A stretch of 64,000 nucleotides of DNA. It comes from a virus (lineage: Duplodnaviria; Caudoviricetes). The translations under genes were made by a program, and so were the position numbers. Positions 36,634 through 64,000 of this stretch are shown in pieces (position 1 is the stretch's first letter; the number at the start of each line of letters is the position of its first letter). The stretch spans positions 49,341 through 113,340 of the IMG/VR virus record IMGVR_UViG_3300033073_001635. One strand, 5' to 3'. A model generated the notes under the pieces. That model searched no databases. It had not been told where the DNA came from and saw only the letters and a list, made by a program, of their open reading frames with translations.

Positions 36634-36634
36634 A

Positions 36635-37636: not shown

Positions 37637-37649
37637 ATTTAATAACTCC

Positions 37650-38771: not shown

Positions 38772-38895
38772 CTATTTTAACTTCTATAAATTCTTCTTCA
38801 TCTATTACTTGATGATTGTATGGATTTGTTGGATCAAAAATAAAGTATTCTTCTTCAAATAATTCTAATTCTTTTTTTTCTTTAAACCAAGACAT
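38698..38895 (-). CDS. Small acidic hypothetical protein
   Basis: SD AGGAG upstream of ATG; overlaps the start of the next gene. Confidence 0.5.
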   Translation of the reverse strand: MSWFKEKKELELFEEEYFIFDPTNPYNHQVIDEEEFIEVKIGENKNDNKFSTNTELPTESKHKHS

Positions 38896-38914
38896 ATATA
38901 TCTCCTATAAAAGC

Positions 38915-38944
38915 AGAAAGGGAAGCGGATCCGCTTCCCTTTCT
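38915..38944. terminator. Intrinsic terminator after the major capsid gene (perfect 30-bp palindrome)
   Basis: AGAAAGGGAAGCGGA-TCCGCTTCCCTTTCT with T-rich tails on both strands. Confidence 0.8.
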
Positions 38945-38981
38945 TTTATACAAGAATCATTTACAGTTTACAAGCAATGAA

Positions 38982-40316: not shown

Positions 40317-40336
40317 ATTATTAACTCTCCTATAAA

Positions 40337-41695: not shown

Positions 41696-41726
41696 ATTGG
41701 AACTCCTATATAATTAAGTTATCTAT

Positions 41727-44270: not shown

Positions 44271-44279
44271 TCTGCCTCC

Positions 44280-46037
44280 TTAATCTACTTTATTCGTAGA
44301 CTGAATAAAGTTTTCAAGTAATTCATTAATATCATCAGTAGATAATAAACTATTCATAGTATTAAAAATCAAGTTATTCAAATCTTTTTGATTATTTTCA
44401 TTTAAGCTATTGACACTTAAATTTTCGTGTACATTATCTTTAGTAAGCTTGGGTGCTAAGCGAACCCCCCGTTGGTTCGCTGGTCTAGCTTGATTATTAG
44501 ATTGATTAGCAGGTCCTGGTTTAATTACATTTCCTAAATTATTTGTTTTAACAGGTTGCTTTTCAGCAACTGCTTTCTTTTCATTTTTCTCTTTATTTAA
44601 TTGTTCAGTTGTAATATTTGAACTTGGATTAGATGCTAAAGCTTGTGCTGAGGCATCAGCAGCAGAACCCATTATTTTTAATAAAGCCGCAGGCTCTTCA
44701 TATAATTTATAATATGTGAATTCTCTATCTTTATCTTGTAAAGATTTTTCACCAAGACGTTTTCTAGCTTCGTCTTCAGTAATTAATTTATTTAACCAAA
44801 GTTGAATAGTTTGATTTTCCATCTTTGATTTTTCTTCTTTATCTACTGTACCAAATTTAATTTCAACTCTTTTATCTGGATCTAAAATAGCATCATCAAA
44901 TCCACCTTCTAAAAGCAATTCATTTATAATATAAGTATCAATAAACATTTTAATATTAGCTTGTAATGCTTCTACATCTTGAATAGCAGATTTAGATAAA
45001 GTGCTTGCTGTACTGCTATTTGCAGAATCTGCTTCACCCATATCCATTGGACTAACACCTAAACCTGCAAAAACTCTTCTTTTGAAATAATCTAGATATT
45101 CCATTGCATTCAATGCTTTTCCTTCAGATCCAATAGCTTCTATTTTGTGTCTATGATCAGACACAAAGATACCACCACTAGGCATGTATTCAATAGTCTG
45201 TCTTACTAAATCTGTTTCTTTTTGACCGTCAGGTCCATATCTTTCTGGATGTGAATCTGTACCTACAGTATAATGAAACAAAGGATGCAAGTTTGCATCA
45301 ACCATAGATTCTACATTTTCTTCTAATCTTCTTAATAAAGCTAAATCTTCCAATACAGGTAATATTTCAGGAGTTCCCATTGTAAATCCCGGTTTTTTAT
45401 TAGTAAAGAAATGCACTACATCTTCAGGTGCAAATTCTTTCATTTTACCTGTATTATGCATTATTTGCATAACTTTTTTAATTTCACCATTTGGTTTAAC
45501 TTTAAACCAAAGAGTTTCAAAAGGTAAAATAAAATAACCAGCTACAGGATCAACTTCTTTATTTTGATGAGGTCTAATAACTCCTGAAGAAGCTTCAGAA
45601 TTTCTAACTTTAACCCACATACAATTAGAAAAGCGAGCTAAATCATGTGCAGTATTAATAACCATCATATCAAATGGCATGCCAGAAACTATTTCAATTT
45701 CTCTTAAACGTTTCTTTATGTAATCTACAACTTCTTTGTCTTTACCTACAAATTCCCAACCAGCTAAAATGACTTTATGAACTTTTTTTTGAATTGCTTT
45801 AAACAAGTAAGCATCTGTGTCTTGAGCAATTTGCAATTCAGTTAAATCATATTCAGGTTTAAACCAATTTCCTCTAAAACGATCAGAATAAGAATAGGCT
45901 TTATTATCTACTTTTTTAATAGAGACACCATTTAGATTGTTTACCCAAACTGGTTTATTTTGATCTTGATGTAATTTGTTTTGCAAATCTAATGTTTGAA
46001 TAGCTTTGTTTATTAATTTAAATTTACTTGTTGACAT
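44280..46037 (-). CDS. Portal protein
   Basis: FILPFETL, FAPEDVVHF, GTPEILPV, FAGLGVSP, KLITEDEARKRLG motifs. ATG 46037 is preferred over GTG 46046. Confidence 0.85.
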   Translation of the reverse strand: MSTSKFKLINKAIQTLDLQNKLHQDQNKPVWVNNLNGVSIKKVDNKAYSYSDRFRGNWFKPEYDLTELQIAQDTDAYLFKAIQKKVHKVILAGWEFVGKDKEVVDYIKKRLREIEIVSGMPFDMMVINTAHDLARFSNCMWVKVRNSEASSGVIRPHQNKEVDPVAGYFILPFETLWFKVKPNGEIKKVMQIMHNTGKMKEFAPEDVVHFFTNKKPGFTMGTPEILPVLEDLALLRRLEENVESMVDANLHPLFHYTVGTDSHPERYGPDGQKETDLVRQTIEYMPSGGIFVSDHRHKIEAIGSEGKALNAMEYLDYFKRRVFAGLGVSPMDMGEADSANSSTASTLSKSAIQDVEALQANIKMFIDTYIINELLLEGGFDDAILDPDKRVEIKFGTVDKEEKSKMENQTIQLWLNKLITEDEARKRLGEKSLQDKDREFTYYKLYEEPAALLKIMGSAADASAQALASNPSSNITTEQLNKEKNEKKAVAEKQPVKTNNLGNVIKPGPANQSNNQARPANQRGVRLAPKLTKDNVHENLSVNSLNENNQKDLNNLIFNTMNSLLSTDDINELLENFIQSTNKVD

Positions 46038-46182
46038 TTGAATCACTCTTCTTTTCTACAGTTAGTTTTGAAATTAATTTTAAATTCATTTCAGAAAGCA
46101 ACAATTGAATCCTTTGAGGATCGTTTGCAAGTCTTTTTGCAGCATCAAAAAACAAAGTTGCCTTTAATTGATTTAAATCCAT
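46024..46182 (-). CDS. Small 52-aa hypothetical protein (not in ORF track)
   Basis: MDLNQLKATLFFDAAKRLANDPQRIQLLLSEMNLKLISKLTVEKKSDSNVNK; fills the gap before the portal; AAGGTG upstream. Confidence 0.6.
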   Translation of the reverse strand: MDLNQLKATLFFDAAKRLANDPQRIQLLLSEMNLKLISKLTVEKKSDSNVNK

Positions 46183-46183
46183 A

Positions 46184-48538
46184 TTACACCTTACCTGTAT
46201 GCATGTTCATTATTAATTCATTATAAACTTTATCTAAGTTTTCGTCATTTATTTTTACATTAGTAAACCCATTACATTCATCTGGATCTAAATAATACTT
46301 TTTGCCATTGTTTAAATTAGTAACTTGAACTTGTCCAAATAAACTTTGAGCATTTAAAGTATTTGTAGAAGCATTTAAAGGATTATTAACTACAGTATCG
46401 ATTTGGATTTGATTATTATAATTTTGTGCAATTATAGAGTTTACTAATTTTGGATTTTGTTTAAATTTTTTACAATCTGTTAAACCAGATTGTATTAATT
46501 TCCAAATAACTCTAACAAATCTAATTAAATGTAATAACTCTAAAATACTACCAGTAATTTGAATATCGTAATCTAAAGTTTCATTAATATATAATGATAA
46601 AGCCTTTATAGAATTTATTAAATCTCCCGTTAAGTCTTTTATAAATTTTTTTGTAGTTTTTAAAGTATTAATCCATTTTTCTAGTAATTGATTAACTGGA
46701 GAAGCAGTGTAACTTTTTAATAGTTCTGATTTAAATTTAATAGTAGGGCCATCTAAATAAGTATCTACATAATTTACTTTTCCATTCAAACCATATGGTT
46801 TTAATACTGGATCCATTGAATCAGTTATTTTTTTATTTATTTTATTTAACAAAGAATATTGTGAATTAAAAATTTTTGATACAGTCGGTCTTGTATTTGC
46901 CCTGAAGTCAAAAACATCTTTTTTCTCAACTCTATACTTTACATCTGTTTTATCAAGCTCTTCAAATAATTTTTTATCATTATCTAATTTTTCTTTGTAA
47001 TTTACTAGCAGCATCGTTATATCTGAAATATGAATTAGAGTTTGAAAGTTAAAATTTTGTTGCGTGTTTTCTTTTAAAAAACTAATAGAGATATTAGTGT
47101 CTTTAAAAGAGAAAACATCTTCCGAACCATTCATTAAAAATATTTCACTTTCATTTCCAATTTTAGAAATTAAACCTAAAGAATTTGTTTCAAACAAAGA
47201 TTCATTTAAAAGATTCTCGATAAACATTAATTTAAAAGATTTTTCAACTAACACCTCAATTACAGATAGCAAATAATCTGGATCAAATGGAATTTCTTCT
47301 TCTAGAATCAAACAAGCAGATAAATATTCTTCAGTAATAGTATTGTATAAATTAATCGCTTCCTTGTATTCATAATATTTTCCAGATTTAAAAAAATCTA
47401 AAGTTAATTCGACATTTGGATTAACTTTACTTTTTATTTTTCCAGAAAAATCATTTGCTACAATTTTTGCTTTTTGAGGTATATCTAGAAAAGCATTCAA
47501 TCCAGCAGTCACTTGATTAGCAGCTTTATCAGCTAATGATAAATAATTTTTAATTAAATAATTAACACCAATTAAACCGTTAATCATACAATCTAAAATA
47601 GGATTTACTAATTTTGGAATATTTTCTAAAGAAGAAACTAAAGCGCCAGCAACTGTTTTTATTAATGGTAGAAAAAAACCACTTAAAGATAACCTAACAT
47701 TTAATAAATCAAATGTGTATTTGGTAAATAAAGTAGGGAAAATTAAAGCTAATGGTGGTAAATTTTTTGGACAAATACCATTATTTTTTAAAGCCTCTAA
47801 TAAAGCACAAATTCCTAGCATAGGTCCTGTTGGATCTAATGCAGCATTCATCTTTTTTAAAAAATCTTTTAATTTATTTAAAATTTTTTTAAAATCAAAA
47901 CTCCATTCTAAAGAAGGTATGTGTAAATCCAATTTAAAATCAACTAAGCAATTTAAACAATTTTCTAATCCAAAATTAGTTTTCCAACCAAATAAATTAA
48001 TTTTATCTTGTAAACCATCCCCATTAGAATCATAGACTCCCATTTTTTCATTTAAATATCTAGTAATATTTTTATTTCTAATTGTATCTAACGAGTATTT
48101 AAAATCATTAGTTGCTTTGTATCCAAAAGCTGCTTTAGGAGTTTTTTTAGGAGTCCAACTATACATATCTCCAATATCAATATCAACATCTGAAAAAGCT
48201 TTATTTGCAATAATGCTTGGATTAGCAGAACCAGTTATATGTTTGCCATCAATAGTACACTCTTCATAAAATGAAGTTTGCTGTTTTTTGGAAACATAAT
48301 TTATATTATCATTTTTCGGTTCTAATAACTCTTCTTTTACACTTTTTGCTGATTCACAAATTGACAATCCAAAACCTAATTCGCCAGTTTCAACAGCAGC
48401 TTCCATGTTAACAACTTGAGCCATCATTAATATTTTAGGAGTAGTTTCTGTTTCTTTCTTAGGTACAGATAATATCAGACCTCTTTCATAAGCATTAACT
48501 AATTCACAAACAGATAAATATAATTTCTCAGTGCTCAT
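46184..48538 (-). CDS. Hypothetical helical protein, 784 aa
   Basis: Long ORF in the operon with amphipathic helices and scattered cysteines; no family recognised. Confidence 0.6.
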   Translation of the reverse strand: MSTEKLYLSVCELVNAYERGLILSVPKKETETTPKILMMAQVVNMEAAVETGELGFGLSICESAKSVKEELLEPKNDNINYVSKKQQTSFYEECTIDGKHITGSANPSIIANKAFSDVDIDIGDMYSWTPKKTPKAAFGYKATNDFKYSLDTIRNKNITRYLNEKMGVYDSNGDGLQDKINLFGWKTNFGLENCLNCLVDFKLDLHIPSLEWSFDFKKILNKLKDFLKKMNAALDPTGPMLGICALLEALKNNGICPKNLPPLALIFPTLFTKYTFDLLNVRLSLSGFFLPLIKTVAGALVSSLENIPKLVNPILDCMINGLIGVNYLIKNYLSLADKAANQVTAGLNAFLDIPQKAKIVANDFSGKIKSKVNPNVELTLDFFKSGKYYEYKEAINLYNTITEEYLSACLILEEEIPFDPDYLLSVIEVLVEKSFKLMFIENLLNESLFETNSLGLISKIGNESEIFLMNGSEDVFSFKDTNISISFLKENTQQNFNFQTLIHISDITMLLVNYKEKLDNDKKLFEELDKTDVKYRVEKKDVFDFRANTRPTVSKIFNSQYSLLNKINKKITDSMDPVLKPYGLNGKVNYVDTYLDGPTIKFKSELLKSYTASPVNQLLEKWINTLKTTKKFIKDLTGDLINSIKALSLYINETLDYDIQITGSILELLHLIRFVRVIWKLIQSGLTDCKKFKQNPKLVNSIIAQNYNNQIQIDTVVNNPLNASTNTLNAQSLFGQVQVTNLNNGKKYYLDPDECNGFTNVKINDENLDKVYNELIMNMHTGKV

Positions 48539-48846
48539 ATTATATCCTTATATTTTTTCTTTTTATTAGATGCAGTATTTAAATTCTTTTCATATTCCAA
48601 TGCAATTGATTTTGCATGATTTTGTTCATCTAAGCTATTTAAAGATGCAGAAATAGAAATCAAAGCAGTAGGATTATTTGCTGCTAAATGTGTTAAAACC
48701 TCTGAAAGTATTTGTTTGAAATCTTCTTTAGTTAAAAAATCTCTAGCAATCTTTTTAAATAATTTTTCATATTGTTCTTCATCTACATTTTCAGCAGATG
48801 CACTATCCAAAGTTTCGTTTTTGTTTAATTTACTCAAAAATGGCAT
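48535..48846 (-). CDS. Hypothetical protein
   Basis: Overlapping start/stop coupling with neighbours. Confidence 0.55.
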   Translation of the reverse strand: MPFLSKLNKNETLDSASAENVDEEQYEKLFKKIARDFLTKEDFKQILSEVLTHLAANNPTALISISASLNSLDEQNHAKSIALEYEKNLNTASNKKKKYKDII

Positions 48847-49324
48847 TTTCTTCCTCTAACAGTAAATTTGTTTGCTCATCTATTTCCATTTGTTTTTTTA
48901 ATTCTAATAAAGTTACATAATCTTCATAAGATATTTTATTTTTGCTAGTATTAAAAACTTCGATTGAAGCTTTTTTTAAAGCTTCATTCTTGCTAATATC
49001 TAAAGCAAATTTATCTGTTTGTTGAGATATATTATCATGTAATAAAGATTTAAATCTATACAACTGATCTTTAATTATAGGTACTTCTTTTTTTAAATCC
49101 TCAATAAACTTATTTGCTTTTTTTACTTCTAACTCACTAAATGGTCTATCAACATCATTTCTTGAATTAACTAATATTGCTTCAATTTCTTCTTCAGTTA
49201 CGTTAACAACATCTAAAGAATTATTTCTATTAGAGAGAATGTTTTGCGCTTCTTTTTTTAACAAAGAACCATAATTAATATCTAATTCGTTTTTATAGAT
49301 TTGATTAAAAAAATCTTTAAGCAT
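48830..49324 (-). CDS. Hypothetical protein
   Basis: Overlapping start/stop coupling with neighbours. Confidence 0.55.
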   Translation of the reverse strand: MLKDFFNQIYKNELDINYGSLLKKEAQNILSNRNNSLDVVNVTEEEIEAILVNSRNDVDRPFSELEVKKANKFIEDLKKEVPIIKDQLYRFKSLLHDNISQQTDKFALDISKNEALKKASIEVFNTSKNKISYEDYVTLLELKKQMEIDEQTNLLLEEENAIFE

Positions 49325-49724
49325 TTACCAATCTTTCTAAATACTTTAATTTTAAAGAAATATTATTTTTAATTTGTGCAGGAGTTAATCCAGGACAATA
49401 AACACGCACCCAATAGCTTATTGGATTCATAGTATTTAAAACAGAAACTACACATTCCTGATTTATAAAAACTTTATTCCATTCGAATTCTGTAGGTTGA
49501 ATTTCTGTTTGTTTTATTTTTACAGACCAACCAGATTCAGTTAAAATATTATTAGAAATTAAATCTGGGAATACAGCAGATAAAACTACGTTTTCATAAT
49601 ATTTATTTGAATCATCATTTTGTAAATATAATTTAAATTCATAACTGCCTCCGGTATAACCATTGTGTGTTGTTTTGAACTCAATTACAGAATTCAAATC
49701 AGCATCTAAAACATTTAAACTCAT
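49317..49724 (-). CDS. Hypothetical beta-rich structural protein
   Basis: Beta-strand pattern (YWVRVYCPG); operon coupling. Confidence 0.5.
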   Translation of the reverse strand: MSLNVLDADLNSVIEFKTTHNGYTGGSYEFKLYLQNDDSNKYYENVVLSAVFPDLISNNILTESGWSVKIKQTEIQPTEFEWNKVFINQECVVSVLNTMNPISYWVRVYCPGLTPAQIKNNISLKLKYLERLVNA

Positions 49725-51859
49725 ATTCTATTTCCTCTGTTTGCGTTGAATCCTCTTCTATGATCTCTTTTTTTAGGTGTAAAAGCTACACCAGCAAGTG
49801 CAGCGCCACTCAAAGTCATAGCTCTACCGCCTGTTACAGCAGAGTTTTCAAACATGTTACTTGTACCAAAATTTTTTGTTAGTTTATCTTTATACATTTT
49901 ATCCATAAAATCAAGTGCTTCGTCATCTAAACTTTCAACCGCTTCTAATTGTTGAGGTCTAGTTTTTCCTTTAGCGCTATCTTTTAATAAACTATTTATC
50001 ATTTTGCCTTCAAACATTTCAGTATTATTGCGTAATAAACTTGCAGCATTTCTACCTATACTTGCACCAACCATACCTGCTACAAAACCAGCCTCTGGAT
50101 TATCATCTGTTGCAGTTCCGATTGCTGCACCAGCTATACCACCAATAATAGATCTACCTGCAAATTTTCTAAAATTATCATCAGAATTAGTAGAAAAGAA
50201 ACCTTCTTGTTTATTATCCATTTTTTGATTTACAGATAATCTAGCTTGTCTAGGTGTCATGTTTTCGTTTAAATTCTGACTATATTGTTGAAACCAACCT
50301 TCAACCCCTTCTTCATCCATATTTTCAAAACTTGAATTAAAAAATGCCTTTAGCGGTTCCGCTTCTTTATCATCTATAACTCCTTGATTTTTATAAAAAT
50401 CTATTCTTTGATTCACAGTTTCTGGATTGTTATTTCTTGCTGCACCTATAAGCTCGTTTTGAAGCATTATATTTTCTTTGTCTCCCATTGCTCTTCTAAA
50501 TACATCAGAAGCAATACTGCCGTCATCAGGCATTGCTTCTAGATTTCTAGTATTATTTAAAGCAGCATAATTAGGATTGTTTTTTAATCTTGCTTCATGA
50601 GATGTTTTTCTTTTTTCTGCAAGTATTTCTGCGTCTGTTTTAACTGGCGGCGGTGGGCTTATTTGTTGTGTTGGTTTTGTAGTATTGGTATTAGTTGGTG
50701 GAGATGAACTATTTAATACTTGATCTAAGGGATTGGGTGTTTGAGATTGATTAATTAAAGGATTGTTCGTCGAGGGAGTTGGATTTGACAGTTGATTTAC
50801 TGATTGTGGATTAACAAAAGGTGAATTTAGTTGTTGTATTGGTGTAATTGGTGGTGGTGGGGGTATTAGACTTCCATTTTGATTAAAGGAAGGTATTTGA
50901 TTTGTTGGATGTGAAATAAGAAAATTTTGAGTTGGTGGTGGTAGTGGTATAATTGGTGGTGGTGGTGGTGGTACTTGGTTTAGATTTGGATTTATTGGTG
51001 TATCGTTTGTTGTACTTCGAAAAAAATCATCTAATTCATCATCAAAATCATCACTAGGTGTATTTATCTGATTAGTGTTTTGTGGTTCATTTTCATGGAT
51101 TTGATTTATAACATTTCGGAAACCTTGAGCATCTTCTTTATGTTTTTGAAGTATATTTTGTCTCGCTGTAACTAAAGTCTTATAATTTTCTTGACTATAA
51201 TTTTCATTTTTATCTGAGATTATTCTTGCTATATTTTCATTTTCATTTTGGTTATTTGCTAATACAGAATCATAATTCTTCAAATAATTATAATGCGTTA
51301 CTTGTGCCTCTTGTAAAATTTCATTAGATACAGTTATTTCTCCTGATCTAATTTGATCCATTTTTTTTGTAACAACGGGCTTAAAAGATTTTAAATACTC
51401 GAACTCTTTTTCGTCAAGCAATTCCTTATGCCGGAATGTTTTTTCATTTAAAAAAAATAATTTTTCTGAGTCCTTATCTGCCAATTCTTTTTCATTTGAA
51501 TTCAATAATTTATTTGGATTTATAAAATCAAATTCATCATCAAGAATAAGGTTGCGACCTTGCAAAGCATTAGTAAAAATTTTCCTATCCTCAGAAATTT
51601 GATGACCTTTTATAGCATTAATATAATCAGTGTCGTTGCTTAAAGTACCAAAAATTTTATCTCTAGCAACCGCTAGATCTCCTGAACCAGATACATCCAT
51701 ATGTGCATGTAGATTAAAATGAAATTTATCTTGTACATATTGTAAAGCCATTGCTTCATCAGATGCATCATTTGACAACCTTTCTGCTACATTACTTAAA
51801 GTACCTGATCTTACTTTAGTTAAAATTCTTCCAAAAGCTTCTACGCCCATAATTACCAA
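49721..51859 (-). CDS. Hypothetical protein with Pro/Gln/Asn-rich linker and C-terminal Gly/Ala hydrophobic helices
   Basis: Poly-Pro tracts at about 50640-51000; IIGGIAGAAIG and AGFVAGMVGASIG segments. Confidence 0.6.
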   Translation of the reverse strand: MVIMGVEAFGRILTKVRSGTLSNVAERLSNDASDEAMALQYVQDKFHFNLHAHMDVSGSGDLAVARDKIFGTLSNDTDYINAIKGHQISEDRKIFTNALQGRNLILDDEFDFINPNKLLNSNEKELADKDSEKLFFLNEKTFRHKELLDEKEFEYLKSFKPVVTKKMDQIRSGEITVSNEILQEAQVTHYNYLKNYDSVLANNQNENENIARIISDKNENYSQENYKTLVTARQNILQKHKEDAQGFRNVINQIHENEPQNTNQINTPSDDFDDELDDFFRSTTNDTPINPNLNQVPPPPPPIIPLPPPTQNFLISHPTNQIPSFNQNGSLIPPPPPITPIQQLNSPFVNPQSVNQLSNPTPSTNNPLINQSQTPNPLDQVLNSSSPPTNTNTTKPTQQISPPPPVKTDAEILAEKRKTSHEARLKNNPNYAALNNTRNLEAMPDDGSIASDVFRRAMGDKENIMLQNELIGAARNNNPETVNQRIDFYKNQGVIDDKEAEPLKAFFNSSFENMDEEGVEGWFQQYSQNLNENMTPRQARLSVNQKMDNKQEGFFSTNSDDNFRKFAGRSIIGGIAGAAIGTATDDNPEAGFVAGMVGASIGRNAASLLRNNTEMFEGKMINSLLKDSAKGKTRPQQLEAVESLDDEALDFMDKMYKDKLTKNFGTSNMFENSAVTGGRAMTLSGAALAGVAFTPKKRDHRRGFNANRGNRI

Positions 51860-54039
51860 CTCCTATTTTTAGAACCAAATCTGCCTCTTTTTTGTACTGC
51901 ACCAAAAGAAGCTGTTTGATTGTTTTTTAATGATTCAAGTATAGAAATTTCTTCTTTAGGATTCAAATCTCTAGATTTCTTATTTGTATTTGGTTGATAT
52001 GCAGGTAAATTATTCTTTTTATTATCTGGGTCTTTTTCATTGAATTCACCACGCATTATTTTTAATACATTTATTTGCCCTGGATATGATTTTTTTTGCA
52101 AATCACTAATTTTTTGATTAGCTTCTTCATCTGGAGTTAAAGATTCATAAGTATTTTTGCCAGTAGAAATAAATTTAGGAGCGCTTATTCCAATTCCTTT
52201 ACCACTAAATACTGATTCTTCAATTACTAAAGCTCCCAAAGCTAACATCATTGCATCTAATCTGTGATCTCCTATTTTTTCATTCTGCATGCCATATACT
52301 GGTTTTCCAGTTTGTGCATTTCTTTTTAATATAATATAATTAGCTAACTGTAATTTTAATCTTTCATCTTCTGCCGGAAATATAATTAAATTCTCTTGAA
52401 AAATTCTAATAGCATTTTCTACTAAGAAATTTTTAGCAGCTTTTTTAACTACATCATTTGTAATTGGATCTTTTAGTTCAACATTTCCTGAAAAATTAAA
52501 AGAAGTTAATCTGTCTGGTATTAAAACAGTTTCAACATCTATTGCAGTTTTATTTCTTTTTTCTCTCAACTGATAAGCTTGAAATCTTAAATCTTCGATA
52601 ATAGTATGTCCATAACCTTCATCTGCATAAATATAATTTGGTTTCCATTTATAATTTAAAGCAATCAATTCTTTAATCCAACGTTTTGCAGAGTATTCTT
52701 CTGCAGGTACATTTATTGCATCTAAAGCAACCCATAATTGTGACTCTGGAAAATAACCAATTACATAAAATTCAGTGCCTGCATTTTTATTCCAATCTAT
52801 GCCAATCGAAACAATTCTTGAATTTGGTGCTTGTATACCAATTCTTGCTAAAGTGTGATTATTAGAAGCATCTAAATAAGTGTAATCAGTTCTTGCTTTT
52901 TGAATCCAATCAGATCTAAATACTCCGCTTTCAGAATCAATAAATTCAGCCATATACTCTGCTAAAAAAGATTCTTTAGTAGACTCTCTAATTATTTCTT
53001 CTTTAATTTGTTCCCAGTGAGGAATCACTGTTGATGGATGAAAATCTTCTTTAAAATCTGGACGCTCTAAACACCATTCATAAAATTTAGATTTCTTACC
53101 AATTGGTGTAGATGTTGCAATTAACATTGTATCTGGTGTAGTAGCTAAAATAGGATTGATAACTTTATCTAATACATCTTTTGGAATCATATCCATTTCA
53201 TCTAGATAAACAATATCTGCAGAAAAACCACGCATAGTACCACCACCAGAACCATCTTGACGCATACCAATACCTGAAACAAAACCTGTAATTGTAGCTT
53301 GATTTTTGAATTCCATTTTAAAAGTTGGAGTTTTTACATAGAGATTATCTCCGGTGCCTGATGTAACTTCTAAACGTAATTCATAATTACGTTTAACTAA
53401 CTTTTCCATTTCTTCAAAAATATTAGTTAATTGAGCTTGATAAGGTGTTACTATCATTATACTTGGACCAAGCATGACTTCATTACCTTGCAAATCTCTA
53501 CCTTTAGATACTTTCAAATTAAATGCATAGTAAAGTAATTTAAGTGCGCTCATAAATGTTTTACCAGAACGACGTCCTTCTCTAATTGCAATACGCTTAG
53601 AAGTACATCTCAATTGCTCTTTTTGGTATGCTCTTAATTTCCATTTATTATCTTTATCATCAAAGCCAAAAATTAATTCAGCCCAAGCCACAGGATCAAT
53701 TGTAGCAAGCATTAATTTTTTAGCATGTTCTTTATCCATTTTTGTAGTCTTTACAATTTCATCTAATCTTTCAGCAGAACCTGGAGGCAACCCTCTAGGG
53801 ATGCCTTTGCAAGGTATAATAAACTTACTTTCTTCAGGATATTTTTCTATTTGTCTAATTTGACAAGATATACACGTCTTATGTACATCAGTTCTGATTC
53901 CATGATTTTCTTTATAATACTGCACAACTTCTTCAGGTATATCTGCATGTATTTTATGATGTCGAATTCCATATTCATTTATTTCATATAAAGTGTTAAT
54001 ATCTGGTTTTTTCATTTTATAATCTTCCAAAAGTAGCAA
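51853..54039 (-). CDS. terL: Terminase large subunit
   Basis: LRAYQ adenine-binding motif, Walker A GRRSGKT, Walker B VYLDE, coupling TSTP, nuclease IGIDWN and GDHRLDA. True start may be ATG 54015. Confidence 0.92.
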   Translation of the reverse strand: MLLLEDYKMKKPDINTLYEINEYGIRHHKIHADIPEEVVQYYKENHGIRTDVHKTCISCQIRQIEKYPEESKFIIPCKGIPRGLPPGSAERLDEIVKTTKMDKEHAKKLMLATIDPVAWAELIFGFDDKDNKWKLRAYQKEQLRCTSKRIAIREGRRSGKTFMSALKLLYYAFNLKVSKGRDLQGNEVMLGPSIMIVTPYQAQLTNIFEEMEKLVKRNYELRLEVTSGTGDNLYVKTPTFKMEFKNQATITGFVSGIGMRQDGSGGGTMRGFSADIVYLDEMDMIPKDVLDKVINPILATTPDTMLIATSTPIGKKSKFYEWCLERPDFKEDFHPSTVIPHWEQIKEEIIRESTKESFLAEYMAEFIDSESGVFRSDWIQKARTDYTYLDASNNHTLARIGIQAPNSRIVSIGIDWNKNAGTEFYVIGYFPESQLWVALDAINVPAEEYSAKRWIKELIALNYKWKPNYIYADEGYGHTIIEDLRFQAYQLREKRNKTAIDVETVLIPDRLTSFNFSGNVELKDPITNDVVKKAAKNFLVENAIRIFQENLIIFPAEDERLKLQLANYIILKRNAQTGKPVYGMQNEKIGDHRLDAMMLALGALVIEESVFSGKGIGISAPKFISTGKNTYESLTPDEEANQKISDLQKKSYPGQINVLKIMRGEFNEKDPDNKKNNLPAYQPNTNKKSRDLNPKEEISILESLKNNQTASFGAVQKRGRFGSKNRSW

Positions 54040-55506: not shown

Positions 55507-58500
55507 TTACATCCTAGTGTGATTTTGTTTTAAGTGAATTAAAGCTTTATGTTGAGCATTTTGCATATTGTTAAATCTTCTAGCTCTAATTGCTTTATTA
55601 GTTGTTTGATTTGTTATTTTTGTAATTTCAGAATTATTGCTTGTTGTTTGTACAGTTTCTATTAAATCAATATTATTCTGTAACATTTGTCCAGAATATT
55701 TAAGTTTATTTTCAACATCTTTACTACCTTTAGTTTCTATTAAACGTTTTAAATCATATTGTAAACTAGGCATATGTTCATTATGTCTAGCCATTTTTCT
55801 ATGTTGATCAAAATCTGCATCAAAAGGTCTAATATTCTTTTTTTGAGAATATTTCTTTTTTAAATCTTCTGAAATTAAAACACTAGGTTCAATAGAAACT
55901 TGCCTAGTATTATTCTTAATTTCATTAAAAGTTTGATCCATTTCTTCTCTATGAAAGTCAGATATTCTACCTTGTTTTTGCGCACTTAACATAATACCTA
56001 ATATATTAGTTAAATTTGCGTTTTCAGCACTTTTAGTTTTATTTGCAAAAGTATTAAAAGTAACAGTTTGTTGAGTTTGTTTATTCATTTCATTATATAC
56101 TTGAAAAAATGGTTCACTCCACATACCTCGACGTTGTTCTACTGCATATTTTTGAGCGGCACTAAAAGCTTTTTCATTGTACATTTGCTCTTGACCTTTA
56201 CCTTCATAAGGTAAGTAAGCAACCGCACCTCTCTTTAATAATTCTAAATTTAAATTTCTGTCTCCAGCAAATAAAGTAGCAACTTGACGTCCATAAGTAA
56301 TATTTGTTGGATCAAATACTAAAGACAATTCTTTTCCTTGCATTAAAGATTTCAACATTTCTTTTGAAATCTCAGCATGTGGCTGTGCTGCTCTTTCATC
56401 ATGTGAAGTTTCAGGAGCATCAATACCAGCCAAACGAAATGAATAATTACCGCTACCCATAAACTTAGAAAGAGGATTATCTGTAACGCCCTTTCTTTGT
56501 AATGTAATAGTATCGGCGTCTTCTACTGAGATATGAAAATCATCTTTGTTTATTACTAAACGCTTTAAATTATTACCTTTTAAACTTAATAATTGTTCTT
56601 GAGTTAATCCTTGATTAGGGCTAGCAAATTCTCTAAATATCTCTCTCATTTCAGGTTTGTAAGCTACGTGACTTCTTAAAAGATTAAATATATCTCCTCT
56701 TTCAGTAAAATGTCTTTCGTTAAACATATAAGAAGAATATTTTTGGCGTTCTCTTATTAATTCTTGATCTTCAAAAACACTATATGATGTTGCAGGACCT
56801 TGATAAGGAGAACCGAAATCTGTATTTACTTTACGCATTAAAGATGCTAAACCATTTTCAGCCAAACCATCATTTTCTGCAAAATATTTATCTTTAATTG
56901 CAGTTTTAAAATTACTTTCAGATCCAAAAAATTTCTTTTGATTTTCAAACCATCTATCATAACTAGGAGAAAGATTAGATGTTTCACTTGCCTTTGTTAA
57001 AGGTGAATCTTGAACTAAACTTAATGTAGCTAAAGCAGCTGCACCAACACCATACATACCAAAAAATTTTAAGCCTGCAGGAGAACTAGCAAATTCTGTA
57101 AATACTTTATTTAAACCATTATCAAAATTTTGTTCAATAATAGTATTTGCAATATTATCTAACTCGGAAACACTTAAACCAGCAGGTAATGCTTTTATAT
57201 TGCTAGCTGCAGTTTCTAATGCAACTGCACTAGGTTGCAAGAATGGTTTAGATTGTATATTCTCTGGTACTTTTCTATCAAAAACATAATTCTTTATTTC
57301 TTTTTCAGTATATAAAGGCACAGCACCTTTATCGTTTTTTGGCATATTAAAAGATTCTTCTAATCTAAAATTCAAATCAGCATATCTTTTAGCTTGTTCA
57401 TTTAAATCTACTGAAGCATCATGCGCAGGATCCGTATAAGTAGCACCATAAGAAGTTTTTATTTCACCATAATCTATATAATTTCTAAAACCAGACTTAT
57501 AATCTCCTAAAGTTTTTTGGTTATAAACAGGCACTTTATTTAAATCTTGTTCAAATTTTAAATTCGTATCGCCTAAATCAATTTGTCTTTGAGCAGATTG
57601 TTCAATTACTTTTTTTGTTAACTCTCCATAATTTGAAGCTCTTGATGTTACATATTGTTTTGAATCCATTACTTGACCAGTGGTTTCGTAATGTTTTATC
57701 TCAAAAAAAGCTCTTCCAAAAGCAGCTTCTCTATTTGTTTCAGGCGGAGTAATAAAAATTTTTTCATTTTTTTGTGCAACTAATGGTTCTCCTGCAAGAA
57801 ATTTTTCTTTAGCTAAATTAATTTCCGCTTCAGAATAACCACTAGTAGTTTTCTGATAACCAGGTTCAGCAACAAATGCATGATGTTGTATTTCATTAAT
57901 CATCGCTTCAACAGGTATTGGTTTTGATCTAGATTGTAATAAACTAGCTGTATGTTTGTGTTCTGTAGCTTTTTTAATTACATCTCTGATTTTCTCAGTA
58001 GTCTTTACTTCATGCGGTTTTTTAAATTTTTCTAAATTTAATTGAGGTAATTTTTTTGGAGTTCTTGATGTTAAAGACAAATCTACTCTATTTGTAAAGT
58101 CAGAAGATATAAACCTTTCAGATAATGATTCAAATCCTTTTATTAAATCGTGTACTTTATTACCTCTAGTACTTAAAAAATTCTTTAGATCTGCACGTTT
58201 TTTTATTGCAGTTTCACTTTGTTTTCTACTATCTAATAGATCAGAATCAAATTCATAAGATTCACCGGTATGATAAATAAAATTTCTCTCTAGTAATTCT
58301 TGTTCTAAAGTTTCTATTTCTTTAGCTCTACCTGAGTAATTATATAAATTGTTTTGAATTAAACTCTTTTTAAAAGAATTATAAGAAGCAATTATCTTTC
58401 TATTATAAGATGGTGTCTTTATTTTTTCAGTAACAATAGTATCTGAATACAAGCTTTTTAATTGTTGAACATTCTCTTCTGGAACTCCTTGATTCCTTAA

Positions 58501-60357
58501 AACTTGTTCTGCGCTTTGAATATGTTGTTGTTCTCTATATAAAGGTGTTTCAGTTAATTGAGAAGCTGAAATTTGTGCGGTATCTGCAATTTCTCCTAAA
58601 TCTGAAACAATTCTAGATTGTAAATTAATTTCTTGAATCTTAGGTACAATCTCTTCAAAAATTTTAGAATATGTAGCCGCTCTATATAAAGGGTCTGTTC
58701 TTTTTAAATTTTTTATATGTGCTATTTTTTCTTCTTCTGACATTTTAGAAAAACGTGACAAAGCTTCTGCTTGCACTACTGATTCTCTTAATACTATATT
58801 TTCATGTATTAAAGTATCCAAACCTGCAGTGTGAGTTTCTTTAAAACTAGAAAGTATTTCTTTTAATTCTGCTTCTGGAGCGTTTTCACTTAAAGCATTT
58901 GTAAACATATACAAACGAGATTGTGCTTCAATTGAAAGCCCTAAAGGAGACGAGACGTTTGAAAGTAAACCTTCTTTAACCAACATAGATTGTTGGGATC
59001 TAATTACATCTTGAATATCTCTTGCACTGCCTGGTTTTGTAGTTTGAAAAAATACATCAGAAACATTGCTATAATCACCATGTACTCTTGCTTCTGCTAG
59101 AGCAGCATTATACTCAATGCCAGTAGAGTAAAAAGGTTCACCAGTAGAAGCAGATGCAGGGATTCCTGCAATAGTCATAAATGGATTATTTTTTATAAAT
59201 GCACGACTTCTTAAATCTGCAATTTGACGTTTAGTTAAAGAAACGTTATCTGGGATTGCATTTTCTTTTCTATAAGCTTCCTCTGCAAGAATCATTTCCT
59301 CTCTTGCTTCAGAAGCAATTTGTGAACCAAATTTTTTCGCTTCAAATTTAATATTAGCAACATAAAGAGCTTTGTTTTTCATTAGCTGTGCTAATTGTTG
59401 TTGCATTTGTTTCATTGAAACATTGGTATGCACATTTATTTTAACATCTTTTGTTAAACCGGAAATTCTTTGACTAGAATATTTAAATTTAGAAAAGTAA
59501 TCTTGCATCAAAGCATTAAAAGTACTTGAATCGTATTGCATATTTCTAGTACGCATATACCTTAAATACTCTGCTTCAGCAGGATTTGAAGTTAAAAATT
59601 TATTAAAACTTTCAGAACCTTCCAATATATATCTTGAAAGAAACGGTTCATCTCTCTCAAACGCAGCATGCAACCCAACTTCTTTTAATAATCTAGTATC
59701 TTCTAATTGAGGATTTAAAGCATCGTTTTCTATTAACAAAGTTTCTGCTTTTAAAATTTCATTAGCAGCGCTAGAATCCTTATCAAAATTTTTTACTTTA
59801 ATTAATTTCTTTTCTAAAGATTCTATTTGATTCTGTAATACAGTATCTAAATTATTAAAATAGGTAGCATTTCTTTTTAAATTTTTTATATTTTCAAGTA
59901 TTTCATTGTAACTATTCTTATTCATTAAATAGTCAACAATAGCAATATCTCTAAAAGACATCTGCTTTACTAAATCAGGATGCATGCCTTTCAATACATT
60001 TACTTGATTCAACTTAGAAGAGGAAACCATATTGGCATTAGTATCTTCTAATTTTCTAATTAAATTAGCTTCCGGAATAAATATATTTAATTCATTTTGC
60101 TCTAAATTGAATAAAGCAACTTCATGCATAGATTCAGTTTTTAAACCTAGAGTTTCAATATCTAAAATCGCTGCATTTTTTAAAATATCTTTAGAATCAG
60201 TAAAAGGTAAAGACTTAGTATCTAAGGTACTAGTTGCTACTTGCTGTTCTCTTTTTTGAATTTGAAAAATAAAACTTTCTGATTCAGAAAAAGCAAGACT
60301 TGATTTAGAAGTATCTAAGGGTTTGTAAGTAGTTCTGAGATATTTTTGCTGTGTCAT
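55507..60357 (-). CDS. Large protein with N-terminal DEDDh 3'-5' exonuclease and C-terminal SNase (thermonuclease) domains
   Basis: ExoI ILDIETLG (D66), ExoII-like ANIKFE, ExoIII HTAGLD (H509/D514); SNase EDADT (D1280), RLAGIDAPE, YGRQVA, LNLELLKRG, RRGMWS. Confidence 0.75.
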   Translation of the reverse strand: MTQQKYLRTTYKPLDTSKSSLAFSESESFIFQIQKREQQVATSTLDTKSLPFTDSKDILKNAAILDIETLGLKTESMHEVALFNLEQNELNIFIPEANLIRKLEDTNANMVSSSKLNQVNVLKGMHPDLVKQMSFRDIAIVDYLMNKNSYNEILENIKNLKRNATYFNNLDTVLQNQIESLEKKLIKVKNFDKDSSAANEILKAETLLIENDALNPQLEDTRLLKEVGLHAAFERDEPFLSRYILEGSESFNKFLTSNPAEAEYLRYMRTRNMQYDSSTFNALMQDYFSKFKYSSQRISGLTKDVKINVHTNVSMKQMQQQLAQLMKNKALYVANIKFEAKKFGSQIASEAREEMILAEEAYRKENAIPDNVSLTKRQIADLRSRAFIKNNPFMTIAGIPASASTGEPFYSTGIEYNAALAEARVHGDYSNVSDVFFQTTKPGSARDIQDVIRSQQSMLVKEGLLSNVSSPLGLSIEAQSRLYMFTNALSENAPEAELKEILSSFKETHTAGLDTLIHENIVLRESVVQAEALSRFSKMSEEEKIAHIKNLKRTDPLYRAATYSKIFEEIVPKIQEINLQSRIVSDLGEIADTAQISASQLTETPLYREQQHIQSAEQVLRNQGVPEENVQQLKSLYSDTIVTEKIKTPSYNRKIIASYNSFKKSLIQNNLYNYSGRAKEIETLEQELLERNFIYHTGESYEFDSDLLDSRKQSETAIKKRADLKNFLSTRGNKVHDLIKGFESLSERFISSDFTNRVDLSLTSRTPKKLPQLNLEKFKKPHEVKTTEKIRDVIKKATEHKHTASLLQSRSKPIPVEAMINEIQHHAFVAEPGYQKTTSGYSEAEINLAKEKFLAGEPLVAQKNEKIFITPPETNREAAFGRAFFEIKHYETTGQVMDSKQYVTSRASNYGELTKKVIEQSAQRQIDLGDTNLKFEQDLNKVPVYNQKTLGDYKSGFRNYIDYGEIKTSYGATYTDPAHDASVDLNEQAKRYADLNFRLEESFNMPKNDKGAVPLYTEKEIKNYVFDRKVPENIQSKPFLQPSAVALETAASNIKALPAGLSVSELDNIANTIIEQNFDNGLNKVFTEFASSPAGLKFFGMYGVGAAALATLSLVQDSPLTKASETSNLSPSYDRWFENQKKFFGSESNFKTAIKDKYFAENDGLAENGLASLMRKVNTDFGSPYQGPATSYSVFEDQELIRERQKYSSYMFNERHFTERGDIFNLLRSHVAYKPEMREIFREFASPNQGLTQEQLLSLKGNNLKRLVINKDDFHISVEDADTITLQRKGVTDNPLSKFMGSGNYSFRLAGIDAPETSHDERAAQPHAEISKEMLKSLMQGKELSLVFDPTNITYGRQVATLFAGDRNLNLELLKRGAVAYLPYEGKGQEQMYNEKAFSAAQKYAVEQRRGMWSEPFFQVYNEMNKQTQQTVTFNTFANKTKSAENANLTNILGIMLSAQKQGRISDFHREEMDQTFNEIKNNTRQVSIEPSVLISEDLKKKYSQKKNIRPFDADFDQHRKMARHNEHMPSLQYDLKRLIETKGSKDVENKLKYSGQMLQNNIDLIETVQTTSNNSEITKITNQTTNKAIRARRFNNMQNAQHKALIHLKQNHTRM

Positions 60358-61173: not shown

Positions 61174-61299
61174 CAGACCACCCCGGTCTACTATTAGTAA
61201 TTTTAAATATAGTGTCGATTGGGGGGAGGTAATATATATATTGCGCCAGAACTTTTCATTCTTTTTCAGCCCACCCCGGTGCTAGGTACATGTCGTACC
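61174..61299. promoter_or_regulatory. GC-rich repeated/hairpin motifs in divergent intergenic region
   Basis: CAG(A/C)CCACCCCGGT at 61174-61187 and 61267-61280; hairpins AGACC-ACCCC-GGTCT and GGTAC-ATGTC-GTACC; G6 run at 61221-61226. Confidence 0.45.
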
Positions 61300-61341
61300 A
61301 AGAAGAGTTGCAATCACCTGTACACAGAAAGGATTTCATAA

Positions 61342-62310
61342 ATGTACACTTTTTTCCTCAATTTTCTAAGTTGCTTTGTATTCTCCGAAAAAGAAGCAAA
61401 CCTAGGAAGTCTAGGCTATGTCCTAGGTCGTTTAACCATACCAATTCTCTTGCTTCACGTAAGCATCGAATGTGGTTCGTACTATTGTGTACCCCTTAAT
61501 GGTTTCCTTGGAATTATTGTTTTAGGTTGTCAAACCAGTAATCTACCAATCTTCTATGTTGCTGCAACTGAACGCTTTGAAGTGGAAGCGGCAAAAAGCA
61601 TAGATAAGCTGACATCTCTAATCATTATGATTCAAACAGTGCTCACCCTTGTAATTCTTTCAGGTACTTATCAAGATCCCAACTTGGTAGTAGTAGCTCC
61701 TGATGAAATTAATGCCTTCTCTAAAAGCGCTTTCTTCCATGAGAAAGTGTTAAGTAAAGAAGAGCTGATTTCTTACTGGAAAGAAAAAGAAGGTGCACTT
61801 GATGTTTCTAAGGAAATCTCTGAAGATTTCCTTAAACAACAGCATGATCTCAGAGTGTTCTTTTTAAAGAATCCTCAAGTTTGTATTGTAGGTGTTCCTG
61901 AACCCTATATGGGAGCTTTTGAAGCTACCAGAGGGTTAACTAGGCTTTTGTGGTCAGTACCACAAGCTTGGTATCATGAAAGAATGCACAGTTGCAAAAT
62001 TGGTTTATCTTTTTCCCATGGAGATAATGATCATATTAAAGTTCTCTCTTCCAAGAGGGCTTCAAAGGGTCATGATTCTGCCAGATGGATAGCTGCAGAA
62101 GACATGAAAAAAGCTTTTTCTCAGATAGATCTTGTGTTTATCACCTGTAGAGGTGATAGAGAACCTTTCTATGAAGGGGATTTTATCCTAGATCATCAAA
62201 CTGCAATTTGGTGGTCTACGGAAAAAGGCAGATCAACATCTGCTGATTGGCTATGGCATGTATACAATAACGGCAATTTGCAAAAATTTGTAGATATGTA
62301 TCGTTATTAA
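61342..62310 (+). CDS. Hypothetical membrane protein, 322 aa
   Basis: SD AAAGGA; several N-terminal hydrophobic segments and a soluble C-terminal domain. Confidence 0.65.
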   Translation: MYTFFLNFLSCFVFSEKEANLGSLGYVLGRLTIPILLLHVSIECGSYYCVPLNGFLGIIVLGCQTSNLPIFYVAATERFEVEAAKSIDKLTSLIIMIQTVLTLVILSGTYQDPNLVVVAPDEINAFSKSAFFHEKVLSKEELISYWKEKEGALDVSKEISEDFLKQQHDLRVFFLKNPQVCIVGVPEPYMGAFEATRGLTRLLWSVPQAWYHERMHSCKIGLSFSHGDNDHIKVLSSKRASKGHDSARWIAAEDMKKAFSQIDLVFITCRGDREPFYEGDFILDHQTAIWWSTEKGRSTSADWLWHVYNNGNLQKFVDMYRY

Positions 62311-62335
62311 ACTCTTTACAACAACCCTTAACAGG

Positions 62336-62387
62336 GAGGTCCACAGGTAGTGCCCTGTGCTGATGATGGCTTAGAAGCCGAAACCTC
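62336..62387 (+). ncRNA. Type III hammerhead ribozyme, copy 1 (cleavage after C62341)
   Basis: GAGGUC / stem I CACAGG-UAGUGC-CCUGUG / CUGAUGA / U / stem II GGCU-UAGA-AGCC / GAAA / CCUC closing stem III. Confidence 0.93.
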
Positions 62388-62422
62388 AGAAAACAAAACC
62401 CAAAACAAAAAGGAAGTCCCAT

Positions 62423-62632
62423 ATGGCTACTCTCAACTATAAAGACAGACATGGCAACAAAATGAGCGTATTGAACGTTCCAGTCGAAGTTGCGCAATCA
62501 TTAATTCTTAACAAAAAGCAATTCAACAAAATTAACCGATCTTGGTTAAGAAACGAAGAAGCAAATGTGGTATTTGATTGTTGCTGTTCCGAAAAAGTAG
62601 ATTACTTAATTTGGAGTCGTTTCTCTAAGTAA
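62423..62632 (+). CDS. 69-aa hypothetical protein between two hammerheads
   Basis: SD AAAGGA after an unstructured A/C-rich leader; the ORF fills the inter-ribozyme space. Confidence 0.7.
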   Translation: MATLNYKDRHGNKMSVLNVPVEVAQSLILNKKQFNKINRSWLRNEEANVVFDCCCSEKVDYLIWSRFSK

Positions 62633-62659
62633 TCGATTAACAAAAAAACCTTTTAAAAG

Positions 62660-62711
62660 GAGGTCCATGCGTAGTGCCGCATGCTGATGATGGCTTAGAA
62701 GCCGAAACCTC
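62660..62711 (+). ncRNA. Type III hammerhead ribozyme, copy 2 (cleavage after C62665)
   Basis: GAGGUC / stem I CAUGCG-UAGUGC-CGCAUG / CUGAUGA / U / GGCU-UAGA-AGCC / GAAA / CCUC; three compensatory pair changes relative to copy 1. Confidence 0.93.
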
Positions 62712-62772
62712 AGAACACACACTTGTAAGAGTCTTTAAGTTTAAAGACTTTAAATAAATAAACTTATCTCAA

Positions 62773-63384
62773 ATGTTAAAATCAATTATTTTCAGTTTAA
62801 TTTTCAGTATTTTATGTTTTGTAGTTTTAGACTACAAAACGCTGGTTTTCTTAAACAATGTTGTCATTCTATTGGTGCCAATATATGGAGCACCAATGTT
62901 TGTTGGTAAACCTGAGAAATGTAAAGACCCAATTATCATCTTATTTTTAATGGTATTTGCTTTCTCATTTTGTATTAGCCCAATCAAAATGATGTCTTCT
63001 CAAGAGAAACAACAATTACCTTGTAAAGGGTATATTGATCCTGAATTGGAAAGTAAATTCAACTATTTGCCAGAATATTCTCACAAATGCACCAGTGTGT
63101 TTCATGCTGGTCATGGAAGAATTGTAAATGGAGTACATCTACTCAGTTACAAAGATGTAGAATATTCTACAAGAGATATGATCGACCAATACAAACAAAA
63201 GAAGCAATATGTCTTTTCTTGTAGAGGAAAACAAAATCCAATATTGGATTTGATGAAACTGAATATCTCGTTTTTGTTTCAAGACAAAAACATTGAAGAG
63301 CAAGATGATAAAGAGATTATTTGGTTTGCCAAAGAAGGCACATTATTAGTGTCACTAATAAGTGTATGGGTCGATTTTAATTAA
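62773..63384 (+). CDS. Hypothetical membrane protein, 203 aa
   Basis: Two to three N-terminal hydrophobic helices. Confidence 0.65.
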   Translation: MLKSIIFSLIFSILCFVVLDYKTLVFLNNVVILLVPIYGAPMFVGKPEKCKDPIIILFLMVFAFSFCISPIKMMSSQEKQQLPCKGYIDPELESKFNYLPEYSHKCTSVFHAGHGRIVNGVHLLSYKDVEYSTRDMIDQYKQKKQYVFSCRGKQNPILDLMKLNISFLFQDKNIEEQDDKEIIWFAKEGTLLVSLISVWVDFN

Positions 63385-63436
63385 CACATGTAACCGTCTA
63401 GCTTAAAGACATTAAAGAAAAGCAAAGGATGAAATC

Positions 63437-64000
63437 ATGGATGTTTTGTTTATGAAAAAAGTTTCTGCTATTGATTTAATTGATAGCGTTGAGAAAGCAA
63501 AGAGTGTCACTTCTCAGCCTTGTACATCTCAGGGGATGTTTAGGGAAGTTTGGGTGGGTAATTATGGAGTATTGAAGAAAGGCAAAGATGTACCTGGAGG
63601 AGGTTTTGATATCTCTCTTGGGGGAGGAGAGATGAATAGGAGGGAATTTGAAGTGTGGACAAAGTATAACCATCTTGGTCTTTTGGCAAAAATCAATTGG
63701 GTCTCTCCTGATAATTTATATTTGTCCATGGAAAAGTTGAATATGAACGAAGGCTTGAAAAACAAAGCAATTAAAGATCTATTCTTTGATTTTTGGGTAG
63801 ACCAAAATGACGACAGAGAATCTGCTATCAATTGTTTAAACAGGGTGAAACTAGTGTTGTGGGCTTTATTAAAAGCTAACAACGAAAGAAAGTTGGCAAC
63901 TTATTTGATTAAATTGAATGGCTTTGATGGGTTGATGAACCCAGGAAAAGTCGATTTAAATAGGGAAATCTATGGGAAGTTATTACAACTTCCCAAAGAT
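63437..64000 (+). CDS. Partial ORF, protein kinase-like N-lobe
   Basis: Read manually: SD AAAGGA, ATG 63437, frame open to the window end; SQGMFREVW, VLKK, NRREFEVW, LLAKI..YLSMEK. Confidence 0.55.
   Translation, partial: MDVLFMKKVSAIDLIDSVEKAKSVTSQPCTSQGMFREVWVGNYGVLKKGKDVPGGGFDISLGGGEMNRREFEVWTKYNHLGLLAKINWVSPDNLYLSMEKLNMNEGLKNKAIKDLFFDFWVDQNDDRESAINCLNRVKLVLWALLKANNERKLATYLIKLNGFDGLMNPGKVDLNREIYGKLLQLPKD

Follow-up and report, generated by a model that had tools for sequence, protein, structure and literature searches.

Type III hammerhead motifs on both sides of a small phage gene and their arrays in related genomes

The early polycistronic RNA of phage T7 is processed by host RNase III, whose intergenic cuts give the cistrons defined ends. 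Synthetic ribozyme insulators of the RiboJ type also provide cistrons with ends that are defined and independent of context. At the locus described here, in contrast to T7, the RNA would cut itself and no host enzyme would be needed.

The closest described systems are the phage and prophage arrays of Perreault et al. 2011 (PMC3088659), in which several co-oriented hammerhead ribozymes lie between genes and flank single genes or short gene blocks whose identity is not constant. Clustered hammerheads of this kind cleave in vitro and, in one case, in vivo, and their role was proposed to be the processing of transcripts into single-gene mRNAs (Perreault et al. 2011, PMC3088659). A benefit of such processing has been demonstrated for no phage hammerhead array (review PMC6765202). 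The layout was already published in 2011, and the present locus is a further example of it. Unlike the arrays of 2011, the hammerheads here are all type III, belong to one sub-family, and number up to six per array. They also sit in a fixed module format with a 3' hairpin, and 19 contigs show at least 12 configurations of the genes between them.

The (+) hammerhead of CChMVd and the Rfam family RF00008 share the core and the three-helix topology with the elements at this locus, and the CChMVd hammerhead also shares the extra residue between A9 and G10.1. The phage elements differ in being DNA-encoded within an mRNA operon and in scoring below the family threshold, and they are accompanied by neither a ribozyme of opposite polarity nor a rolling-circle replicon. 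Retrozymes and viroid-like RNAs (PMC4918200, PMC7761336) resemble the locus in another respect, as they consist of a unit between two direct type III copies whose joined ends re-form a hammerhead. Those RNAs, however, do not code for protein or are replicons, fold into stable rods or branched structures, and are closed into circles by known ligases (PMC4918200, PMC7761336), whereas the RNA considered here is a weakly structured ordinary mRNA whose 3' end is predicted to prefer a local hairpin. In further contrast to retrozymes, only two copies are present in the 113-kb record, and no reverse transcriptase was found among the operon proteins scanned.

Hammerhead motifs at the start of a phage operon

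The window is a stretch of 64,000 nt that forms the last 64 kb of a 113,340-bp IMG/VR virus record (IMGVR_UViG_3300033073_001635; CheckV completeness estimate 69%). The record belongs to an uncultured, contractile-tailed phage of ~155 kb. The minus strand of the window encodes structural genes, namely the major head protein, portal, large terminase and tail sheath, together with several giant ORFs. An ORF of 1616 aa (55507-60357, minus strand) carries a Pfam SNase (staphylococcal-nuclease) domain at residues 1306-1414 (E = 5e-16) and lies just downstream, on the minus strand, of an ORF matching large-terminase PHROGs.

The plus-strand gene block starts at 61342, and the hammerheads separate genes at the 5' end of one operon. 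A leader motif, CAGCCCACCCCGG, is located at the start of this plus-strand operon (61267-61279, plus strand), and a second copy, CAGACCACCCCGG, is found at 61174-61186, 93 bp from the first. The shared sequence, CAGMCCACCCCGG, thus occurs twice at the strand switch and is absent elsewhere in the record and the 158-kb relative described below, which makes it a probable promoter or leader signal for the transcription unit. The counterpart of the copy at 61267-61279 directly adjoins the first hammerhead in five related loci (L128, L132, L136, L159 and L163), and in L130 the leader is joined to a hammerhead and the gene F8. In a simple scan, the spacers between F2, F8, F4 and F1 contained neither a terminator-like site nor, on the plus strand, a sigma-70-like promoter. 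Because of this, and because a locus-specific motif marks the operon start, the operon genes are read as co-transcribed. The first of them, F2 (61342-62310, plus strand), is a 322-aa ORF without a known family, and its homologues in L124 and in the 158-kb relative (G001) show 62-81% identity.

Hammerhead 1 (HH1) follows F2 at 62336-62387 on the plus strand. It begins with the 5' strand of stem III, GAGGU (62336-62340), and C17 at 62341, followed by the stem I hairpin (62342-62359), the core CUGAUGA (62360-62366), an extra U at 62367 between A9 and G10.1, the stem II hairpin (62368-62379), GAA (62380-62382), and the 3' strand of stem III, ACCUC (62383-62387). The predicted cut lies between C62341 and C62342. 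Hammerhead 2 (HH2; 62660-62711, plus strand) has the same layout, with C17 at 62665 and the cut between C62665 and C62666. HH1 and HH2 have the same core, stem II and stem III, and their stem I differs at three pairs, all fully compensatory. At minimum energy, each copy folds into a three-way junction in which stems I and II are capped by loops and stem III is open, which is the type III topology.

A type II reading was dropped, as stem II is closed by a loop. At E values up to 10 on 600 nt, Rfam returned only a partial type II alignment (13.5 bits), because the upstream hairpin and GUC together resemble a closed stem III. The SD-like GGAGGU that contains the stem III 5' strand was also considered as a ribosome site and dropped, there being no start codon at suitable spacing downstream.

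The residues of the hammerhead core (C3 U4 G5 A6 N7 G8 A9, G12 A13 A14, the A15.1-U16.1 pair, and H17) are intact in HH1, in HH2, and in 26 of 26 distinct relatives. An extra core nucleotide is present in 9 of the 26. The CChMVd hammerhead likewise has an additional nucleotide at position 10, and a U there is reported to make cleavage 3-4 fold faster (PMC3705267, citing De la Pena & Flores 2001). The types of loop 1 and loop 2 are mostly paired, UAGUGC occurring with CUUAGAAG and UUAUCU with GCGAAUUGAAGC, although exceptions occur. This co-occurrence would be as expected for a tertiary contact between the loops.

Relatives were collected by a motif search on stem III and the core, which yielded one viral contig, nine metagenome contigs and one MAG contig, and the family alignment comprises 26 distinct hammerheads from the first ten loci. 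Within it, 92% of cells pair on the hammerhead structure, compared with 30-41% in controls with slid partners. Changes on both sides of a pair, i.e., compensatory changes, are observed in 12 of the 15 base pairs, and the observed covariation score was reached by none of 500 shuffles. Since 13 core positions are constant in all 26 copies while the helices compensate, selection appears to act on the RNA fold and not on the DNA. A covariance model built from these family members assigns 70.4 bits to HH1 and 70.1 bits to HH2 (E about 1e-20). It detects no third copy in the 113-kb record, whose opposite strand is likewise free of matches, and no minus-strand hammerhead at the related loci scanned.

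The Rfam model RF00008 (Hammerhead_3) aligns to HH1 over its full length but scores 28.3 bits, below its gathering score of 48.5. Relatives that do not have the extra U score 35-39 bits, also under the threshold. An Rfam scan of the whole window at the gathering level accordingly gives zero matches, and standard annotation overlooks both elements as a result. Judged by their sequence, HH1 and HH2 are nonetheless genuine type III hammerheads that look active and would be expected to cleave.

Several other searches were carried out. An exact search of viral contigs with the 25-nt core and a blastn search of window positions 61300-64000 against a phage collection each gave no match. A loose motif pattern gave at least 120 matches, mostly due to chance, and was abandoned; L126 and L133 are chance matches within GC-rich coding sequence. 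A candidate in the same record, L140, was rejected as a hammerhead because it is without stem II and GAAA. The unrelated GC-rich metagenome contig L131 contains a well-formed type III hammerhead (2151-2208, minus strand; 27.9 bits with the family model) with stem III GGAGGUC/GAAACCUC, as in the present locus.

Ribozyme-bounded genes in related phages

According to the initial annotation, double cleavage would release nt 62342-62665. These coordinates are exact, with cuts after C62341 and C62665 giving a piece of 324 nt, and the content ascribed to it (an A/C-rich leader, an SD and a complete 69-aa ORF) is confirmed in the sequence. The leader (62388-62422, plus strand) is A/C-rich and unstructured; its SD, AAGGAAG, occupies 62410-62416 and is separated from the ATG by 6 nt. 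In L130, L132 and L164, too, F8 is preceded by this leader. F8 itself (62423-62632, plus strand) is the cargo of the ribozyme-bounded unit and encodes an ORFan of 69 aa plus stop. Its frame of 210 nt has zero indels across three loci. Among 5.8 billion proteins, its homologues form only 3 clusters, all at least 86% identical. Comparison of F8 with Pfam and PHROG gave no family, an Atlas look-up gave no usable match (model pLDDT 0.47), and a peptide-based search of viral contigs found no match.

Hairpins are located next to both cut sites. The trailer hairpin CCCU-UAAC-AGGG (62325-62336, plus strand) abuts or overlaps the stem III 5' strand of HH1 and is the predicted 3'-terminal hairpin of the upstream product. 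The trailer hairpin ACCUUUU-AAA-AGGAGGU (62648-62664, plus strand) competes with stem III of HH2; with pair probabilities of about 0.6, it is predicted to form the 3' end of the excised RNA. A 3'-terminal hairpin overlapping the stem III strand is found in 22 of 28 distinct upstream segments, which are related by descent, compared with 41% of random 26-mers. Between HH2 and F4 lies a leader hairpin of 20 nt, AGUCUUUAAG/UUUAAAGACU (62730-62749, plus strand), with UGUAAG in front. In relatives, versions of it with wobble and compensatory changes are present in the F4, F20, F1 and F6 leaders, and it can be regarded as a second conserved RNA module at the locus.

F4 (62773-63384, plus strand) is a 203-aa ORF with hydrophobic segments which, judged from the translation, look membrane-spanning. 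It is followed by F1 (63437-64000, plus strand), an ORF cut by the record end that is about 215 aa in relatives and matches phrog_4301, a PHROG of unknown function. Searches of the cassette proteins against Pfam and PHROGs gave no known family for any, and the weak matches were limited to one sub-threshold Pfam match for F20 and a metalloprotease-like match for F5. Downstream of the variable region, F1 serves as a conserved anchor gene, and a hammerhead follows it in every relative whose sequence continues. The F4-F1 junction (63385-63436) is without a hammerhead in every genome carrying F4; hence, F4 and F1 would remain together on one bicistronic RNA.

The 19 related contigs contain 2-6 hammerheads each. 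Runs and assemblies that yielded relatives are SRR9061355, SRR10036078, SRR29424596, SRR32380199, ERZ28594277 and ERZ28615069. All 43 hammerheads measured, from 11 loci, are intergenic and on the coding strand. In this set the distance from the stop codon to the cut has a median of 34 nt and is mostly 29-36 nt, and the distance from the cut to the next ATG has a median of 91 nt. The intergenic module runs from the stop codon through ~30 nt that include a small hairpin to the cut, continues with the 47-nt ribozyme body and an SD-containing leader of ~30-60 nt, and ends at the ATG. Within the variable region a hammerhead is present at almost every gene junction, the F4-F1 junction being the consistent exception.

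At least 12 gene configurations are observed over one interval in the 19 contigs. With P for the leader motif and a slash for a hammerhead, the window reads P F2 / F8 / F4 F1. Maps in which F2 stands first or directly after P are G001 (P F2 / F20 / F1 / F3 F5 /), L124 (F2 / F1 / F16 / F3 F5), L129 (F2 / F9 / F1 / F3 F5), L134 (F2 / F18 / F1 / F3) and L148 (P F2 / F8 / F1 / x / F3 F5). A hammerhead directly follows the leader motif in L136 (P / F2 / F9 / F6 / F20 / F4 F1 / F3), L132 (P / F19 / F6 / F8 / F4 F1 / F16 / F3 F5), L159 (P / F2 / F9 / F6 / F8 / F4), L130 (P / F8 / F20 / F4) and L163 (P / F19 / F8), and L164 reads F8 / F9. The other contigs show the same patterns again or cover the region partially. 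In some family members stem III consists of 3 bp only, and these copies may cut slowly.

The contig G001:C1 (CAYOWH010000001.1, 158,217 bp) has 88% DNA identity to the record over 19 kb of structural genes and is therefore a near-complete close relative. Its fourth hammerhead is located 7 kb farther along, behind a gene of 1859 aa. The contig, in which locus L147 spans 36000-54000, is filed in a MAG labelled uncultured Bacteriovoracaceae and is either a mis-binned phage or a hint of the host. Past the last hammerhead of the variable region, the long leaders of F3 and F5 contain GACGAGACGAAA-like repeats (L124, 8369-8382 and 9220-9245), which are conserved in L129, L132, L134, L136, L148 and G001 and may be the promoter or operator of the next transcription unit.

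The initial annotation also raised the possibility of an exchangeable, ribozyme-bounded gene cassette and proposed comparing cassette content across relatives. This comparison supports the idea. In each of the several related genomes that carry F8, hammerheads flank it on both sides, and the gene sets vary, with at least 12 of them in contigs spanning the interval. The upstream neighbour of F8 is one of four (F2, the operon leader, F6 or F19), and its downstream neighbour is also one of four (F4, F20, F1 or F9). The flanks and interiors of the hammerheads are mosaic, in that their nearest relatives differ. The flanks of HH2 match the UUAUCU-loop hammerhead of L130 and L132 while its interior matches HH1, which indicates a patch of gene conversion. 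This mosaic pattern points to recombination or gene conversion of DNA within the repeated module as the source of cassette turnover. A module of 60-100 bp recurring between genes would provide homology for DNA recombination, and this shared homology would explain why related phages carry small genes in different sets and orders.

Two other origins were rejected. Exchange of cassettes as RNA, precisely at the sites of cleavage, does not fit because homology breakpoints occur on either side of the ribozyme and inside it, as expected for DNA recombination. A purely deletional origin from one collinear super-array is contradicted by gene order, which is F8-F9 in L164 and F9-F6-F8 in L159.

Probable processing of the transcript and possible fates of the excised RNA

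The arrangement is probably best explained by one long transcript that is cut into linear single-gene mRNAs with insulated ends, the module being used for recombination as well. During transcription of the operon in vivo, each ribozyme would fold and cut, converting the polycistronic RNA into linear mRNAs of a single gene or, in some cases, two genes. Each new mRNA would start with a 5'-OH and the two ribozyme hairpins. The upstream piece would end in a 2',3'-cyclic phosphate, 1-5 bases past a hairpin formed from the released stem III strand. Such a hairpin design would favour product release together with defined, protected ends. Every gene would thereby receive the same context-independent ends, giving insulation and probably protection from exonucleases.

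The same hairpin allows a second reading, in which cleavage is regulated. Here the hairpin upstream of the cut would sequester the stem III 5' strand, so that cutting awaits a signal and tunes the expression of neighbouring genes; candidate signals are a ribosome terminating 29-36 nt upstream and a phage protein. By competing with stem III, the hairpin could keep the ribozyme inactive instead of acting once cleavage has occurred. In most copies the hairpin and stem III cannot form together, the distance from stop to cut is kept at 29-36 nt, and the stem III 5' strand reads GGAGGU, a perfect SD-like sequence, also in copies whose own 3' strand pairs with only 3 of its bases. However, at -4 to -6 kcal/mol these hairpins have little stability, folding of the entire element at minimum energy gives the complete hammerhead, and no ligand-binding or protein-binding feature was identified. 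Regulated cleavage is unlikely, though it is the strongest of the alternatives.

A circular mRNA is less probable still. The 324-nt RNA would in that case be closed either by reversal of the hammerhead reaction or by an RtcB-type ligase of the host, giving an exonuclease-resistant message for the 69-aa protein. The ends of hammerhead products are chemically suited to both routes. The initial annotation had pointed out that joining the ends would rebuild a hammerhead, which necessarily holds, HH1 and HH2 having identical stem III halves. The predicted back-junction of the closed RNA is ...AAAAGGAGGUC joined to CACAGGUAGUGC..., and a junction hammerhead could form there. Nearly all hammerheads of known circular RNAs are likewise of type III (PMC13725137). 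In each of the four F8 units tested, the ends are compatible over 5 bp, owing to the leader being inherited with F8. Across the arrays, however, compatible ends occur in 11 of 30 ribozyme-bounded segments, which is fewer than the 49% of random family pairs, and the last unit before F3 can never close because the two stem III types differ.

The further evidence gives no support to the circular or ultra-stable mRNA that the initial annotation had envisaged. A search for rtcB, which it had suggested, found no RtcB in the 113-kb record; an Rnl2-type ligase was likewise not found in the record, nor was RtcB found in the MAG holding the 158-kb relative. The opposite strand carries no hammerhead in either the record or the related loci. 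The 324-nt RNA is no better folded than shuffled sequence (z = -0.53) and is not rod-like. The junction helix is predicted at ~2.5%, against ~60% for the local 3' hairpin, and enforcing the helix costs 2.2 kcal/mol. No permuted junction was present in 12 contigs fetched via F8 homologues, all of which are collinear DNA contexts. Perreault et al. 2011 raised the same idea for such arrays and detected no circular or spliced products (PMC3088659). If the reading were true, a DNA phage would possess a class of exonuclease-resistant, circular, translatable mRNAs for variable accessory genes.

About as improbable as the circle is the view that the motifs are catalytically idle repeats, i.e., intergenic DNA serving as recombination sites or structural RNA with no meaningful self-cleavage: the Rfam scores of 28-39 bits against the threshold of 48.5, the 3-bp stem III of some copies and the extra core nucleotide would agree with it, but 13 core positions are conserved in every copy of the alignment while the helices compensate, all copies are on the coding strand, and the extra-nucleotide variant is active in CChMVd (PMC3705267).

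Possible meaning for phage accessory genes

The purpose of phage hammerhead arrays has been a standing question since 2011 (PMC3088659, PMC6765202). To the published layout, the present locus adds a sub-family below the Rfam threshold, a fixed module format, and comparative evidence for interchangeable ribozyme-bounded genes. It is a compact test case, comprising a 324-nt single-gene unit, two nearly identical ribozymes and a near-complete 158-kb relative, and F8 in its four contexts per side provides natural variants. The comparison suggests a ribozyme module with two roles, which would insulate small accessory genes at the RNA level and supply the homology for their gain, loss and reordering.
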